The translations under genes were made by a program, and so were the position numbers. From positions 366,942 through 430,941 of the forward strand of contig OY970354.1 of assembly GCA_963718515.1 (NCBI GenBank): 64,000 nucleotides of DNA, read 5' to 3'. Below the pieces are notes generated by a model. That model saw nothing but the letters and a program-made list of their open reading frames with translations. It made no database searches and had not been told where the DNA came from. The DNA comes from an uncultured bacterium. Its GTDB lineage: Bacteria > Patescibacteriota > Minisyncoccia > UBA6257 > 2-01-FULL-56-20. This document shows positions 2,640-41,194 of this stretch, one piece after another (the stretch's first letter is position 1; each line of letters opens with the position of its first letter).

Positions 2640-2665
2640 ATAAGTCATTAGGTTAAGAGTAAAGG

Positions 2666-2690
2666 CCTCGCTTGCGCGGGGTCTTTTTTT
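2666..2690 (+). terminator. rho-independent terminator after gapA
   Basis: GC-rich hairpin cctcgcttgcgcgggg followed by a T7 run. Confidence 0.5.
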
Positions 2691-2890
2691 GATTTCCCGT
2701 TCTCGTCTCAAAGGTCGGCAAATTAAAAACGCCCTTATTGAGATGCAAAAGGAAAGAAAACGTTTTTCCCGTTGGGAGATTTGCGTACGGTGTGAGCGCC
2801 GGTGTCGCAAGATCTACCATTTCGGTCGGGAAATGGAATCTACTGCGATCCTTTGCAGAGCATGCTCGCGGGCATTAGAACCAAAAAATC

Positions 2891-3193
2891 ATGGAAGGAT
2901 TTATTCCTCTCGCCGAAGTGGCGAGCGCGGCTACGCGATCCGTCGAGCTGCGGCGGCTCACTGATCGACAGACACGCGTATATCAAGCGTTTGTGGAGGA
3001 GATCGGTAATATTCGCGTGCCGAGGATCGTTGAACTCCTCCAAATAGCCAATAAGCTGAAAATCAGCTATAAAGCCGCCCGGTGTGCCAAAAATACTCTC
3101 GTCAAAAAAGGATTTTTGAAGCAATGGACAACTACCTTTCGGGATAAGGATGGCCTTTTCCGCAAGAGTACCTATTACCGGATCGAGTTTTAG
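2891..3193 (+). CDS. winged-helix/HTH DNA-binding protein (regulator or excisionase-like)
   Basis: 100-aa ORF with HTH-like segment LLQIANKLKISYKAARCAKNTLVKKGFL. Followed by a strong terminator and a long palindrome. Confidence 0.45.
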   Translation: MEGFIPLAEVASAATRSVELRRLTDRQTRVYQAFVEEIGNIRVPRIVELLQIANKLKISYKAARCAKNTLVKKGFLKQWTTTFRDKDGLFRKSTYYRIEF

Positions 3194-3206
3194 GGAATCA
3201 TGAAAA

Positions 3207-3241
3207 ATCCGCCGGACTGAAAACCCGGCGGTTTTTCTTTT
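3207..3241 (+). terminator. rho-independent terminator
   Basis: tccgccgg…ccggcgg hairpin followed by tttttcttttt. Confidence 0.7.
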
Positions 3242-3250
3242 TCTTAGATA

Positions 3251-3296
3251 GGGGCAAATCTATTAATTAATTTCTTAATTAATTAAGATTTGCCCC
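3251..3296. repeat. 46-bp near-perfect palindrome (GGGGCAAATC…TTAATTAATT…GATTTGCCCC)
   Basis: Perfect 10-bp outer inverted arms flanking a TTAATTAA-rich core. Candidate operator, origin or recombination site. Confidence 0.6.
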
Positions 3297-3380
3297 CTCC
3301 GTGTTTTTTCTTAGGTTTCTCCGTCATTTCTGTTGTTTCGCTTATATGTATATTTGCCCTTTTTCGATTTCATTTCAAAT

Positions 3381-3427
3381 GCCAAAGTGTTGATAACTTT
3401 TATTTCGGCAGTTATCCACACTTTGGC
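3381..3427. repeat. 17-bp inverted repeat (gccaaagtgttgataac / gttatccacactttggc) with 13-bp spacer
   Basis: One mismatch between arms. The left arm is repeated directly at 16182..16199. Confidence 0.6.
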
Positions 3428-3631
3428 CCCGCGGAAACTTTTTCGCTGTTGTAGAAAAATATAAACATGGTCATCTGCTCAATCTGTTCTCATAGCGAGT
3501 GGTGCGACGGCGGCGATCGGTGTGATTGCCAATGCCACGACGTCGATCTCGAAGATGATGGATTCTACGAGGAAGACTACGACGATGAGGGCGAAGGAAT
3601 TGACGGCAACGAAGGGGATTAATAAACAACC

Positions 3632-3781
3632 ATGAACCCAATACTCATACTTCTCGGTTTCATTGCTTTGTATATCAGCGCTTCCCGGCTTGCTTCCGTA
3701 AGGCGGCCGCCGCAGATGGGATTCATCATGCCGAAGAAGACCCTGTGGCAAAGGATAAAAAGAATCTGGCGCAACCGATGA
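3632..3781 (+). CDS. small hydrophobic peptide (49 aa), putative membrane protein
   Basis: ATG-initiated short ORF MNPILILLGFIALYIS…, co-directional with the downstream cluster. Overlaps minus-strand ORF 3479..3751, so uncertain. Confidence 0.25.
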   Translation: MNPILILLGFIALYISASRLASVRRPPQMGFIMPKKTLWQRIKRIWRNR

Positions 3782-3902
3782 ACTGGGATATTTTCAAAGG
3801 ATTCTGGCTGGGTGTTATCTCACTTCTATTCGTCGAATTTTCAATCGTATGGTCCGTGGATGAAACCAAAGGTAACGACGATAACGATACATTAAAACCA
3901 AC

Positions 3903-4058
3903 ATGACATTTCAAGATTTCATCGGCACGATCATTTTCGCTTTTATGTTCAACTTCTGCATCACGGTCATGCTCGATGGATTGCTCGGATTGTTTTACCG
4001 GCAGATCGGGGCCAAATACATTAAAGTCGTGATGAAAAATGACGGATTGAATTATTAA
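3903..4058 (+). CDS. small hydrophobic peptide (51 aa)
   Basis: MTFQDFIGTIIFAFMFNFCITVMLDGLLGLF…, a TM-like peptide. Overlaps minus-strand ORF 3726..4061. Confidence 0.25.
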   Translation: MTFQDFIGTIIFAFMFNFCITVMLDGLLGLFYRQIGAKYIKVVMKNDGLNY

Positions 4059-4059
4059 C

Positions 4060-4185
4060 ATGACGCCCCTCGATACAATTTTCTACCAGTGGTCAGAAGT
4101 GATCAATCCCTCATGGATTCTCGTGCTGTTCGCCCTTACCACGTTGCACACCTTCCTATTTACCTTCATCGAAAATTGGCTCTAA
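4060..4185 (+). CDS. small hydrophobic peptide (41 aa)
   Basis: MTPLDTIFYQWSEVINPSWILVLFALTTLHTFLF… with a predicted TM segment. Confidence 0.25.
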   Translation: MTPLDTIFYQWSEVINPSWILVLFALTTLHTFLFTFIENWL

Positions 4186-4295
4186 AGATAACATAAAGAT
4201 TCGATAAAGAAGTTATAAAGAAAAGTTAAATAAATTTTAAAGATGTTATTCCGGAAAAATAAAGGTCGAATAAATATTAACCAAACACCACAACC

Positions 4296-4565
4296 ATGGT
4301 CAAAAAGATTTCTCTTTGGCTTTCGGGCGCTGGCGCTGCGATCGTTGGCCTCATTGGGGCTGCGGCCGCTCACGCGCAGTCCATCCCGGCAGGCGCTTTG
4401 GCGGTCCCCACCTCTACGGTTCAGGATCTCCTAGCGTCGGTCAGTAACGTGTTCACCGATCCGGGTATTCTCGGCATGGTGATTATCGCTGCTGCACTGC
4501 CGATCGTCTTCTGGTTCGCTCGCCAAGTCATTGGCTTGCTGCCGAAGTCGCGCGCAGCCCGCTAG
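4296..4565 (+). CDS. small secreted protein with C-terminal TM anchor (pilin-like topology)
   Basis: 89 aa. Signal peptide ending AHAQ and C-terminal hydrophobic segment. C-terminal module DLLASVSNVFTDPGIL…FWFARQVIGLL is shared with 4851..5462. Confidence 0.5.
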   Translation: MVKKISLWLSGAGAAIVGLIGAAAAHAQSIPAGALAVPTSTVQDLLASVSNVFTDPGILGMVIIAAALPIVFWFARQVIGLLPKSRAAR

Positions 4566-4623
4566 CATCTCACCCCATCTCACGGGCGAGGGGATGTCGT
4601 GAGAACGTCCCTTCACCCGTGAT

Positions 4624-4854
4624 ATGAAAAAGAAAATTATCACAATTTCGTTTGTTGCCTTGATTCTGATCGCCGCGGAATTTTGGTGGGCCGTGTTGAC
4701 GTTGCCTTGGCCACTAGTCGTCGCCATATATGCGTACATGGCTCATGTCCTCGTTTTGGGGTTCTTGGAAATCGCAGTGGTTGCCCTTGTTATTCCGCTC
4801 GTATTTTATCTCGTCCACGGGATCATCAATCTCGTCCGCTCAAAAAAGAAATGA
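4624..4854 (+). CDS. small integral membrane protein (2 TM)
   Basis: 76 aa, very hydrophobic. Its stop overlaps the next start codon (ATGA). Confidence 0.45.
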   Translation: MKKKIITISFVALILIAAEFWWAVLTLPWPLVVAIYAYMAHVLVLGFLEIAVVALVIPLVFYLVHGIINLVRSKKK

Positions 4855-9433: not shown

Positions 9434-9795
9434 AAATCTGGGGGGCTTCCCAAATTCCCCCAAAGGTGCTAATTTTTAAGTACAAATTAATATGTAATAG
9501 GTAGCCTAAACCCCGCGAGTAATCGCGTGGCATGGCAACAGAACCGATGAGAGACAAAAAGCTCCTAGTCAGAGCACTCTCATCGGTCATATCTCGAAAG
9601 GGATATGGGTGTCGCAAGGCATCGCTGGCTGGGAGCTTTTTGCGTCAAGCCGGCACGACTAACCTATTGCACTTAGGTCGAAAAGATTTAAAATCAAAGG
9701 TAAGGAGATGCCAGCACCCCGCGGCATTCTATAATATGTTTATAATTTTTGGCACGCGTAGTATCTTGAAAAACTTAGGCATAGTTTTCAAGAAT

Positions 9796-10224
9796 ATGTG
9801 TAACAATTGCCACAACGAAAAGTATTGGGTCTTGACCCGTACCACGAGGTGGTTTACGTTATTTTTTATACCTATTTTTCCAACCTCATCTAGGTATTCG
9901 TTGAGCTGTCCTGTCTGCAAATACGGGATAAAACTAAATCAGGAACAGATTGAGAAATATAAACCCATCGCGGAGGCGAACACACTTTTGGCAAATGGCG
10001 CAATCACTCAAGAAGAATATCAAGAACGCCTTAATCTTCCGAAAACGGTTCAAAGCGATGTTTCGGTCCCTGAATCAGTTGCTGCTCCTAGTCTTGTGTC
10101 TGCTGCCGTTTCTACTCAAGCGGCGGTTCGTGCTCAAACCCTAGCTGCGTATTGCAAGGAATGTGGAACACGATCGGACGGAGGAAAATTCTGTGGTCAA
10201 TGCGGAAATTTAATGACTGCCTAA
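9796..10224 (+). CDS. zinc-ribbon domain protein
   Basis: N-terminal CNNCHN…CPVCKYG and C-terminal CKECG…CGQCG zinc ribbons. An upstream in-frame ATG at 9735 is an alternative start. Confidence 0.45.
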   Translation: MCNNCHNEKYWVLTRTTRWFTLFFIPIFPTSSRYSLSCPVCKYGIKLNQEQIEKYKPIAEANTLLANGAITQEEYQERLNLPKTVQSDVSVPESVAAPSLVSAAVSTQAAVRAQTLAAYCKECGTRSDGGKFCGQCGNLMTA

Positions 10225-37899: not shown

Positions 37900-37987
37900 T
37901 GGCGGTGAGGGTGAGATTCGAACTCACGATACGTTGCCGTATGGCGCTTTTCAAGAGCGCTGCCTTAAACCACTCGGCCACCTCACC
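37900..37987 (-). tRNA. tRNA-Ser (anticodon TGA)
   Basis: Hand-folded cloverleaf with 7-bp acceptor, 3-bp D stem, anticodon loop CTTGAAA, long variable arm, TTCGAAT T-loop and encoded CCA. Confidence 0.85.
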
Positions 37988-37991
37988 TTTG

Positions 37992-38062
37992 TGGACTCAC
38001 GGGGAATCGGACCCCGACCTCCTCCATGCCATGGAGGCGTAATACCATTTTACTATGAGCCC
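37992..38062 (-). tRNA. tRNA-Ala (anticodon GGC)
   Basis: Cloverleaf with G3:U70 Ala identity pair and anticodon loop ATGGCAT. T-loop reads TCCGATT, an unusual C at position 55. No encoded CCA. Confidence 0.7.
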
Positions 38063-38149
38063 TCGCAGAACAGTAATCCGCCGCGCGAGCCTGACACTCA
38101 TTCTATATATATTGCCGCGCCTGCGTCAATCCGCTATAGTGGGGTGAAA

Positions 38150-38224
38150 GCCCTCGTAGTTCAATGGATAGAACAAATCCGTCCTAAGGATAAAATGGAA
38201 GTTCGATTCTCCCCGAGGGCACCA
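38150..38224 (+). tRNA. tRNA-Arg (anticodon CCT)
   Basis: Cloverleaf with anticodon loop GTCCTAA, TTCGATT T-loop and encoded CCA. One A·C mismatch in the T stem. Confidence 0.75.
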
Positions 38225-38296
38225 GCAAAAAGAAGGATGTTGTAAAGATAGGGCCGCAGTGCTACAGTAGTCGGCAGACCTTTTTAATTGAGCTAA

Positions 38297-38938
38297 TTGA
38301 GAAGGCCAATCTCACCAAGAGGAGAATACGGTTTGACACGCTCGCTTGTTCACACCGCTACATCTGCCCCGAGTTCCTTGCCGCCACCACTTCTTTCCGC
38401 CTCCGGATATGCATATGTCCAGGGGTTTTCGTGGCTGCAAGACCACGCCAACAAGAAAAGATTTACCTTCATCAAACTCAACGGGCCGGTCACTTCCGAA
38501 TCCCCGATGGACAACGACCAATTGCGCCTCTGTCTGTGCCATCTGCTTGAGCGGCGCTATGGAGGCACCGTCGTTAAGGCGCGCACCAAGTCGATTCTTG
38601 CCGGGTGGCAGAGCCACCAGGCATTCCGTTGCGCGAACCGCGACGCCTCGTCGAAATTCCCCATTCCTTATGCGCAGATGATGCGTCAGGAAGACGAAGA
38701 CAGGGTTCTTCAAGCGATCCGTGCCGGCGGCGATCCTTGTGTGATCGGCACATCTCTCGAGTTCGTCAAACCCGAGTATCGCGCCTTCTTCAATCACCTC
38801 TTCGGCTGCGAGGCCAACTCCCACGAGTGTATCCCGTGCCAGATCCTCGTCGAAGATTGGAGGGCATTGAAGCTCGCGCGCGAGCAACATGCTCTCTACT
38901 CATATATTTCGATCGGCACGCGACTTACCCTCGACTGA
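38297..38938 (+). CDS. hypothetical protein
   Basis: TTG-initiated ORF (alternative TTG at ~38335 behind an AAGAGGAG SD). Ends at a strong terminator. Overlapped by minus ORF 38312..38890. Confidence 0.4.
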   Translation: MRRPISPRGEYGLTRSLVHTATSAPSSLPPPLLSASGYAYVQGFSWLQDHANKKRFTFIKLNGPVTSESPMDNDQLRLCLCHLLERRYGGTVVKARTKSILAGWQSHQAFRCANRDASSKFPIPYAQMMRQEDEDRVLQAIRAGGDPCVIGTSLEFVKPEYRAFFNHLFGCEANSHECIPCQILVEDWRALKLAREQHALYSYISIGTRLTLD

Positions 38939-38951
38939 GCCAAACGTTTTT

Positions 38952-38996
38952 CCCCTGCGGTGTACCTATCCACCGCAGGGGCTTTTCTTTTTTACG
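38952..38996 (+). terminator. rho-independent terminator
   Basis: 11-bp stem cccctgcggtg…caccgcagggg followed by cttttctttttt. Confidence 0.8.
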
Positions 38997-39074
38997 AGGG
39001 AAGAGTAGGGTAAAGGGAGTTGCTCTTCCTCCCCAAAGATCAAGGGCACAATTTCACCCCAAAGGAAATAAGAG

Positions 39075-39335
39075 ATGTCGAGCGTATCAGCGGTCATCAC
39101 TCACGGGATGGTTCCCTCCATCCAAGATCAACGCCCACCACTTTCAACCATCGTCCCCACAGAAGGGAACATCGACTGCACGGATTACGAAAACTTCGGC
39201 AGATTCATGGATCGTTTTCTTGCCCGCAAGTTGAGGCCGGCTCACGGGCGGGCAATGCACGTACATGTTAGTTGCTGTCCTGGCTGTCGTGCCTTCGAAA
39301 CCAAGCGTGCGAACAATGTCGCCAAACTCGACTGA
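39075..39335 (+). CDS. small Cys-containing hypothetical protein
   Basis: 86 aa with an AAAGGAAAT SD 8 nt upstream. Followed by a ggcgccgc…gcggcgcc hairpin. Confidence 0.4.
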   Translation: MSSVSAVITHGMVPSIQDQRPPLSTIVPTEGNIDCTDYENFGRFMDRFLARKLRPAHGRAMHVHVSCCPGCRAFETKRANNVAKLD

Positions 39336-39479
39336 CATCTCAATTCCCTAGCCACCCGGCGCCGCGTTTTTCCCCCTGGAATGCGGCGCCTTTAAAATTG
39401 CCTTTTTTAGTGTTTTCATCTTAACTATCAGGAGGGGAGAGTTGGCTAGTGGGTCTAACGCGCCGCACATATGCAAAGC

Positions 39480-39566
39480 GGAAAGGTGGCTGAGTGGTCG
39501 AAGGCGCCGCACTCGAAATGCGGTGTACTCGAAAGGGTACCGTGGGTTCGAATCCCACCCTTTCCG
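39480..39566 (+). tRNA. tRNA-Ser (anticodon CGA)
   Basis: Cloverleaf with anticodon loop CTCGAAA, long variable arm, TTCGAAT T-loop and no encoded CCA. Flanked by 13-nt leader/trailer complementarity. Confidence 0.85.
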
Positions 39567-39619
39567 CTTTGCATATGTAGATTTCTTCATGGCCTGCCTC
39601 TTAGGCAGGACATGCGGTT

Positions 39620-39660
39620 GGGGCGAAACCTCCTCACAGGTTCGAACCCTGTACTCTCCG
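39620..39660 (+). other. tRNA-like 3' fragment (T-arm ACAGGTTCGAACCCTGT + acceptor 3' strand), no complete cloverleaf found
   Basis: Canonical T-arm but no matching 5' acceptor, D or anticodon arm within 100 nt upstream. Possible att remnant. Confidence 0.45.
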
Positions 39661-39680
39661 CAGTCCGCCATGCGGACATT

Positions 39681-39756
39681 GCCACCTTAGCTCAGTTGGT
39701 AGAGCAGTGCTTTCGTAAAGCAAAGGTCCCCGGTTCAAATCCGGGAGGTGGCTCCA
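39681..39756 (+). tRNA. tRNA-Thr (anticodon CGT)
   Basis: 76-nt cloverleaf with anticodon loop TTCGTAA, TTCAAAT T-loop and encoded CCA. Confidence 0.85.
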
Positions 39757-40153: not shown

Positions 40154-41194
40154 ATGGATTACGCCGAACAGCTCAACGAACTGGACATCGAAGCTCGCCA
40201 TCTGGGCGAGCGTCTTTGACGTCTCGAAAAAGAAGGAACAGATCGCGGCGCTTGAGGCAGATATGGCATCCGCGGGTTTTTGGGACGGGGCGGCAGCGAG
40301 ATAGCAGAAAAGAAGATCCGCGAACTCGGAGAATTAAATGACGTCGTCTCAAAATATACAGACATTTGCGCGGGGATCGATGATCTAAAAATCCAGTTCG
40401 ACGAAAATAAATTCCATGAGATAAAGCGCGCGTTCCGCGAATTCGAGCTTCAACGACTCTTCACCGGCCGCTATGATCGGCAGTCCGCGGTGCTTGCGGT
40501 GTACCCGGGCGCGGGTGGCGAGGACGCGGAGGATTGGGCGCGGATGCTCGGCATAATGTATGAGGGATATGCAAAACTGCGCGGTTGGAAGATGCGCGTG
40601 GTGGATGACAATCCGCGCTCGCGTACGATCGAAATAAACGGCGATTATGCCTACGGTTATCTAAAGAACGAACAAGGCGTGCATCGCTTGGTGCGCATTT
40701 CGCCGTTCTCGCCGAAAAAATTGCGGCATACGGGATTCGCGCTCGTGGAAGTGATTCCCGACCTGCCCGCGCTCGAAGAATCAAAATTGCAGATCCCGGA
40801 GAGCGACCTGCGCTTTGAATTCTCTCGCTCCGGCGGCCCGGGCGGACAGAATGTGAACAAAGTGGAGACGGCGGTGCGCGTGGTACACATCCCGACCGGC
40901 ATCGCGATCAGTTCGCGCGCACAGCGTTCGCAACAACAGAATCGGGAGCAGGCGCTCAAGATCCTCAAAGCGCGACTTTTTCAATTGATGGAACAGGAAA
41001 AAGTCGAAGAAGTCGGCGCATTGCGCACGAAGGTTAAGCCCGAATGGGGAAATCAGATCCGCTCGTATGTTTTGAATCCTTATCAGATGGTGAAAGATCA
41101 TCGCACCGACGCCGAAACATCGCGCGTGGACGACGTGCTGGGTGGAAATATCGATATATTTATCGAGGCGATGTTGGAGAAGAAGTCAAAATAG
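40154..41194 (+). CDS. prfB: peptide chain release factor 2 (programmed +1 frameshift; additional frame disruption)
   Basis: N-terminal [21 protein letters not shown] then CTT TGA C shifty site at 40214..40220. The +1 frame gives [24 protein letters not shown]… matching RF2. Downstream body has SPF and GGQ motifs. A second frame change is needed near 40285..40304. Confidence 0.85.

Follow-up and report, generated by a model that had tools for sequence, protein, structure and literature searches.

The prfB gene described here carries the canonical +1 programmed frameshift site of release factor 2 (RF2) followed by a second frame change that no orthologue examined requires, and this second change most probably reflects a minor lesion of the sequence or its assembly and no novel type of recoding. 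Translation of what is otherwise a standard prfB gene would start at the ATG at position 40154. When RF2 is scarce, the ribosome would shift +1 on the CTT of CTT TGA C and continue into the RF2 body, as in the classical autoregulatory loop. The second break would lie outside this mechanism, as a lesion confined to the present record with a net 5-nt excess within 40284-40312. Its source would be an error in the assembled consensus: a single compound indel, or an extra G combined with an insertion of 4 nt.

The window (the whole 64-kb stretch of DNA that was analysed) had been given a first-pass annotation that called this gene prfB, and similarity searches bear out the call. The reconstructed protein finds thousands of RF2 homologues and matches RF2 orthologues with an E value of about 1e-179. 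The top match (P0001) is identical to the 304-aa ORF and is recorded on just one contig, of 829,201 bp (NCBI/ENA), and the matches after it are 84-87% identical proteins from Paceibacterota/Minisyncoccia metagenome-assembled genomes (MAGs). All of these proteins, P0001 included, contain both class I release-factor domains, PCRF and RF-1 (PF03462 and PF00472). The body translation displays the SPF codon-recognition tripeptide within RISPFSPKK and the GGQ catalytic motif within GGPGGQNVN. Among the NCBIfam models, prfB TIGR00020 matches best at 356.4 bits, below its cut-off of 370, and the RF1 models reach 181-184 bits; RF2 is clearly the best match, and a score under the cut-off may be usual for a divergent phylum. 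FtsE and FtsX are encoded directly downstream of prfB.

The frames are arranged as the first-pass annotation had described them, with correct coordinates: 21 codons from the ATG lead to the TGA of the frameshift site, the +1 frame is RF2-like until it meets a TAG, and the body returns to the original frame (Table 1). The body ORF is in frame with the ATG (40280 − 40154 = 126), and homology to orthologues begins within it at about 40301. The +1-frame segment is homologous to the orthologue sequence DLAAKQKRIAELEAEMSSAGFWN up to Trp-Asp; its 23 residues after the first shift align with that sequence, so RF2-homologous coding continues in the +1 frame. A single shift is therefore insufficient for full-length RF2 here, and a second frame change is needed, as had been proposed. 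Given the second frame-0 TGA, the ribosome would have to read in +1 between 40220 and 40256 or beyond, and to regain frame 0 upstream of 40302.

Table 1. Features of the prfB locus, in window coordinates.
Feature	Position	Strand	Description
GG-rich Shine-Dalgarno-like element GGGCGAG	40204-40210	+	Followed by CGT, then CTT; 3 nt upstream of the shift site
prfB ORF0	40154-40219	+	ATG, 21 codons, in-frame TGA at 40217-40219
+1 programmed frameshift site CTT TGA C	40214-40220	+	In-frame TGA preceded by CTT and followed by C
+1-frame segment, 28 residues	40218-40304	+	Ends at TAG 40302-40304
Second frame-0 TGA	40253-40255	+	Precludes plain frame-0 read-through
X XXY YYZ heptamer G GGT TTT, +1 frame	40274-40280	+	Only classical -1 motif in the zone where the frame could be rescued
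RF2 body, 304-aa ORF, frame 0	40280-41194	+	SPF and GGQ motifs; stop TAG at 41192-41194
Aberrant linker, 29 nt	40284-40312	+	Between TGG (Trp) and AAG ATC CGC (KIR); 24 nt in orthologues
GGGG run	40287-40290	+	Inside the aberrant linker
Out-of-frame CGG CAG	40291-40296	+	Inside the linker; matches the Arg-Gln codons of orthologues

By its sequence and conservation, the first shift is the canonical, conserved prfB +1 autoregulatory site that the first-pass annotation took it to be. Eighty related loci were taken from the genome-collection matches listed, and the site was read in the 22 closest of those listed. CTTTGA followed by C, A or G occurs at the homologous position in 21 of these 22 orthologous Paceibacterota loci. 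Because this site is kept and the reconstructed protein matches RF2, the two-frame layout is not a chance pattern of ORFs. In the 21 site-bearing loci the last residues of ORF0 are ...RLGERL or ...RLGGRL, and 3 nt upstream of the site these loci carry a GG-rich element (GGGCGAG, GGCGGG or GCGGGG); by analogy with the E. coli prfB model, the GGGCGAG of the present gene has a putative stimulatory role. A survey of more than 12,000 genomes likewise found the CTTTGA-type prfB motif to be almost invariant (PMC12421855). Over its 21 residues, the leader shares 76-86% identity with four of the five closest orthologues among the matches listed and 62% with the other, L002; the identities expected from body divergence are 0.64-0.65 for the four, against 0.76-0.86 observed, and 0.66 for L002, against 0.62.

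The closest genome-collection orthologue listed (L001; CAVVHF010000018.1, MFD01112.bin.1.8, positions 3055-3075) encodes RF2 in one ORF. It reads GAG CGC CTT GAC, which is the whole frameshift motif, upstream GGGCGAG included, minus one T. Truly in-frame prfB genes lose their frameshift elements (PMC12421855); since L001 keeps the motif and yet is in frame, either autoregulation was lost there very recently or a single T was deleted in a nanopore-only assembly. Among the more distant loci, the tblastn match to RF2 starts only at about residue 81-105 in six (L039, L046, L050, L057, L061 and L062) from Harrisonbacteria, Yanofskybacteria and other Patescibacteria, in which the domain-1 region is very divergent or differently organised.

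The second break is found in this record alone. The +1 frame runs uninterrupted into the body in all 21 site-bearing orthologous loci (among the matches listed). Across the 80 loci listed, tblastn returns one continuous segment starting at or before residue 21 in 35 of the 36 loci that are at least 58% identical; the remaining locus is truncated by its contig and matches continuously from residue 36. The need for a second shift is thus seen in none of the 36 close loci by tblastn (at least 58% identity, among the matches listed), and no orthologous prfB compared shares the two-shift architecture. Two metagenome scans for the same lineage elsewhere, one using the exact flanks and the other a degenerate codon pattern (W-D...IAEKKIRE), gave no matches.

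The first-pass annotation held that the break would be mended most simply by one more nucleotide in the GGGG run, and it overlooked that the stretch from Trp to KIRELG is 5 nt longer here than in every orthologue. From the Trp of “FW” to KIRELG, the linker measures exactly 8 codons in 117 orthologous proteins (113 matched by pattern and 4 by eye), with the motif FW-x-[DN]-R-x-x-A-[DE]-x-K, in which the Arg is present in 113 of 113 and the Ala in 112 of 113. In the MAFFT alignment, each of the nine orthologues has one 5-nt gap, which lies opposite CGGGG (40286-40290). With 29 nt here and 24 nt in orthologues, the lesion is a net gain of 5 nt and therefore not the one-base homopolymer miscount originally suspected.

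We scored alternative prfB products, in bits, against a profile built from the 117 orthologues. Removal of one G together with CGAG yields FWDGRQIAEK, in which CGG CAG is kept as Arg-Gln, and scores best at 628.7 bits. Removal of 5 contiguous nt yields FWDGSEIAEK at 625.2 bits. Adding one G, the repair originally suggested, does restore the frame, but it produces a 10-residue linker where orthologues have 8 and scores 619.7 bits, 9 below the best repair and 5.5 below the 5-nt removal. A -1 slip at G GGT TTT gives 614.8 bits, and a truncated product that starts at TTG 40280 gives 614.2 bits. Since the repair scores lie only a few bits apart, the profile does not decide the exact edit history. 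Measured against the orthologues, the local linker sequence is anomalous in a compound way, and the organism's true gene probably reads FWDG followed by R-Q/E or S-E, in one continuous +1 frame.

The surrounding genes bear on whether RF2 is required and on how reliable the sequence is. The stops of the 54 confident genes in the 64-kb window are TGA (12), TAA (32) and TAG (10), and TGA is never a sense codon in this set and interrupts no gene. Because TGA ends 12 of the 54 genes, RF2 is needed; no second release-factor gene occurs in the 64-kb window. Reassignment of UGA, or read-through in frame 0, was rejected as an account of the locus, since the conserved sequence is in the +1 frame and TGA is a normal stop. 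The rest of prfB is undamaged, with 304 open codons and with start codon, leader and shift site intact; the lesion, if real, must therefore be very recent. Relaxed selection on the N-terminus was also rejected: the leader is conserved at least as well as expected, and the low identity of the 23 residues after the first shift (0.43-0.57, against an expected 0.64-0.67 with an SD of 0.10) is 1-2 SD down and not significant. Among the approximately 54 genes of the window, no other broken gene is visible by coding-frame profile, ORF junctions or Pfam; when 20 suspicious ORFs were searched against Pfam, overlapping neighbours belonged to different families or had no match.

Several other regions of the window were noted in the course of this survey. 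Between 50277 and 60237 on the plus strand, five predicted surface proteins bearing fn3, Big and cohesin-like domains lie in a row after a 1588-aa ORF. Four of the five carry individual signal peptides, and a C-terminal anchor is present in three. Since these adjacent Ig/cohesin proteins carry their own signal peptides or anchors, the short overlaps between them are gene boundaries and not frameshifts. In the region 2640-4680 the ORFs of either strand are all small (74-140 aa), none has a Pfam match and the coding score is low; the region could consist of lineage-specific small genes or of degraded sequence. Five tRNA genes lie at 37900-39756 (Ser-tga, Ala-ggc, Arg-cct, Ser-cga and Thr-cgt). 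The roughly 1.2 kb between tRNAs at 38246-39400 has a weak coding signal, and the overlapping ORFs there, 38297-38938 and 38605-39234, have no Pfam match. A full-length match to the LOOT RNA family (RF03000) at 9503-9623 on the plus strand scores 91 bits against a gathering score of 46 and overlaps the start of the ORF at 9532-10224.

An assembly indel and a real inactivating lesion, the two options put forward in the first-pass annotation, are the right pair of leading explanations for the second break. We infer, with modest confidence, that it is a consensus or assembly error. The sole contig behind P0001 has a size typical of long-read assemblies, the break strikes an essential single-copy gene at a non-conserved place in a singleton genome, and the nanopore-only relative L001 lacks a single T from an otherwise full motif; each of these points favours an artefact. 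Several of the nearest relatives listed are nanopore-only MAGs, and the nanopore MAGs of these relatives were assembled with Flye and given one round of Medaka polishing (PMC12313526). Against an artefact, a net gain of 5 nt is atypical of single-base homopolymer error, and the intactness of the other genes implies a low general rate of indel errors. The lack of other split genes neither supports nor excludes a long-read origin. It is possible, though on our reading rather unlikely, that the sequence is correct and records a recent real mutation, such as an imperfect 5-nt tandem duplication of GGGAC into GGGGC. No full-length RF2 would then come from this allele; an N-terminally truncated RF2 would be made instead, starting at TTG 40280 or by re-initiation after TAG 40302. 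In another version of this explanation, the assembled consensus would represent a defective allele that is transient or carried by a minority. The two pentamers do adjoin (GGGAC at 40282-40286, GGGGC at 40287-40291) and match at four of five positions, MAFFT models one 5-nt insertion, and the window otherwise looks clean. A genuine mutation would also suit a body ORF opened by a TTG 22 nt upstream of the TAG and post-shift residues that are somewhat more diverged than expected. However, the cell requires RF2, the TTG is preceded by no Shine-Dalgarno-like sequence, and no decay is seen in the leader, the start codon or the shift site. Under a single insertion, moreover, the protein before the lesion would have lacked the Arg present in 113 of 113 orthologues, and a mutation that inactivates an essential single-copy gene would not be expected to attain consensus frequency.

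The one-base repair can also be cast as a history, in which the true gene reads GGGGG, one G was dropped by the assembler or by slippage, and the lineage carries its own Gly-Gly insertion. We regard this as unlikely; it is a sub-case of the error and mutation explanations, and our confidence in it overlaps with theirs. It calls for only one edit, of the commonest error type, restores the frame, and produces GGC GGC AGC, which resembles a triplet expansion. Nevertheless, it needs a real 6-nt insertion at a place where neither the 117 orthologous proteins nor the 21 loci show any change in length, and its product scores lower, as given above, and lacks the invariant Arg.

The first-pass annotation also raised the prospect of a novel recoding event, and this did not hold up: the two-shift layout is present in no orthologue, and no recoding signal stands out. 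The frame could be rescued only by a -1 or +2 move inside 40256-40301. Candidate routes back to frame 0 for a second recoding event are a -1 tandem slip on G GGU UUU, a move of tRNA-Gly by +2 or +5 from GGG at 40287-40289 to GGC at 40289-40291 or 40292-40294, and two more +1 slips, at GGG G and AAA G. We consider such an event very improbable. The heptamer does lie in frame within a 15-codon zone that is open in both frames, and in-frame X XXY YYZ heptamers occur at 4.7 per 1000 codons across the 64-kb window, which gives an expectation of about 0.07 for that zone. The sequence itself is made of conserved Gly-Phe codons preceded by a synonymous GCG Ala codon, to which the heptamer is solely owed; in the three closest CTTTGA-bearing loci listed (L002-L004), GGT follows a T or a C instead of a G. 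The 90 nt downstream are no more structured than shuffled sequence (MFE of -18.3 against a shuffle mean of -16.1 kcal/mol, z = -0.85), with 38 of 200 shuffles folding at least as well. The sequence upstream of the heptamer contains no Shine-Dalgarno-like element, and Rfam matched no RNA family at the prfB locus. The product of a -1 slip would lose the invariant Trp and falls 14 bits under the best repair. We therefore judge the heptamer to be a chance feature and not a recoding site. A hop of tRNA-Gly from GGG 40287-40289 to GGC 40292-40294 would yield the exact 8-codon linker, but it comes without signals of any precedented type.

Supply of the protein poses a further difficulty. The first shift of E. 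coli prfB proceeds with an efficiency of 30-50%. Multiplied by an unstimulated second shift, this leaves an estimated yield of about 1% for a protein that is essential. That the 29-nt sequence is correct and RF2 is made by two recoding events in succession, first the canonical +1 shift and then either a return to frame 0 or termination and re-initiation to give a split RF2, strikes us as very improbable. If these events did occur, they would add a second checkpoint to RF2 autoregulation. A second break that was real and decoded would make this the first prfB to need two recoding events, in an uncultured small-genome bacterium, and would be of interest to the recoding field. Transcriptional slippage was set aside as well, as the longest nearby runs, T5 (40277-40281) and A5 (40226-40230), are too short; known slippage tracts are far longer.

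Because prfB is “broken” by design, additional lesions in it are easily over-read. Annotation pipelines will call the present gene either a 304-aa protein or a pseudogene, and statements about the completeness of this genome, a “missing RF2” or stop-codon reassignment should not rest on this record as it stands.

Features in common with E. coli prfB are CTT TGA C as slippery codon and stop, the GG-rich element that precedes it by 3 nt, an ORF0 of few codons (21 here, 25 in E. coli), a +1 frame that continues into RF2-homologous sequence, and a site conserved across the clade. The upstream element is GGGCGAG here and GGCGGG in orthologues, whereas E. coli-type prfB has AGGGGG. Unlike members of the E. 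coli-type family, this record alone has an extra frame break 70 nt downstream of the shift. In this respect it resembles the isolated prfA “pseudogenes”, which have a non-conserved break without conserved recoding elements in a single genome of a species, and for which the authors leave open whether the cause is sequencing error or real pseudogenization (PMC12421855). Unlike those cases, it concerns prfB, and its break comes on top of a genuine programmed shift.

Frameshifting of the dnaX type (-1) combines a slippery heptamer with an upstream Shine-Dalgarno-like element and a downstream hairpin. The present locus is similar in having an in-frame X XXY YYZ heptamer upstream of the stop of the incoming frame, but it has neither the downstream structure nor the upstream element, the heptamer is not conserved, and the product would be damaged. 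Gracilibacteria and Absconditabacteria, which use genetic code 25, lost RF2 after UGA was reassigned, and they are related small-genome Patescibacteria in which RF2 can be dispensable. Here, by contrast, 12 of 54 genes stop at TGA, which is nowhere used as a sense codon, and the RF2 body is intact and highly conserved.
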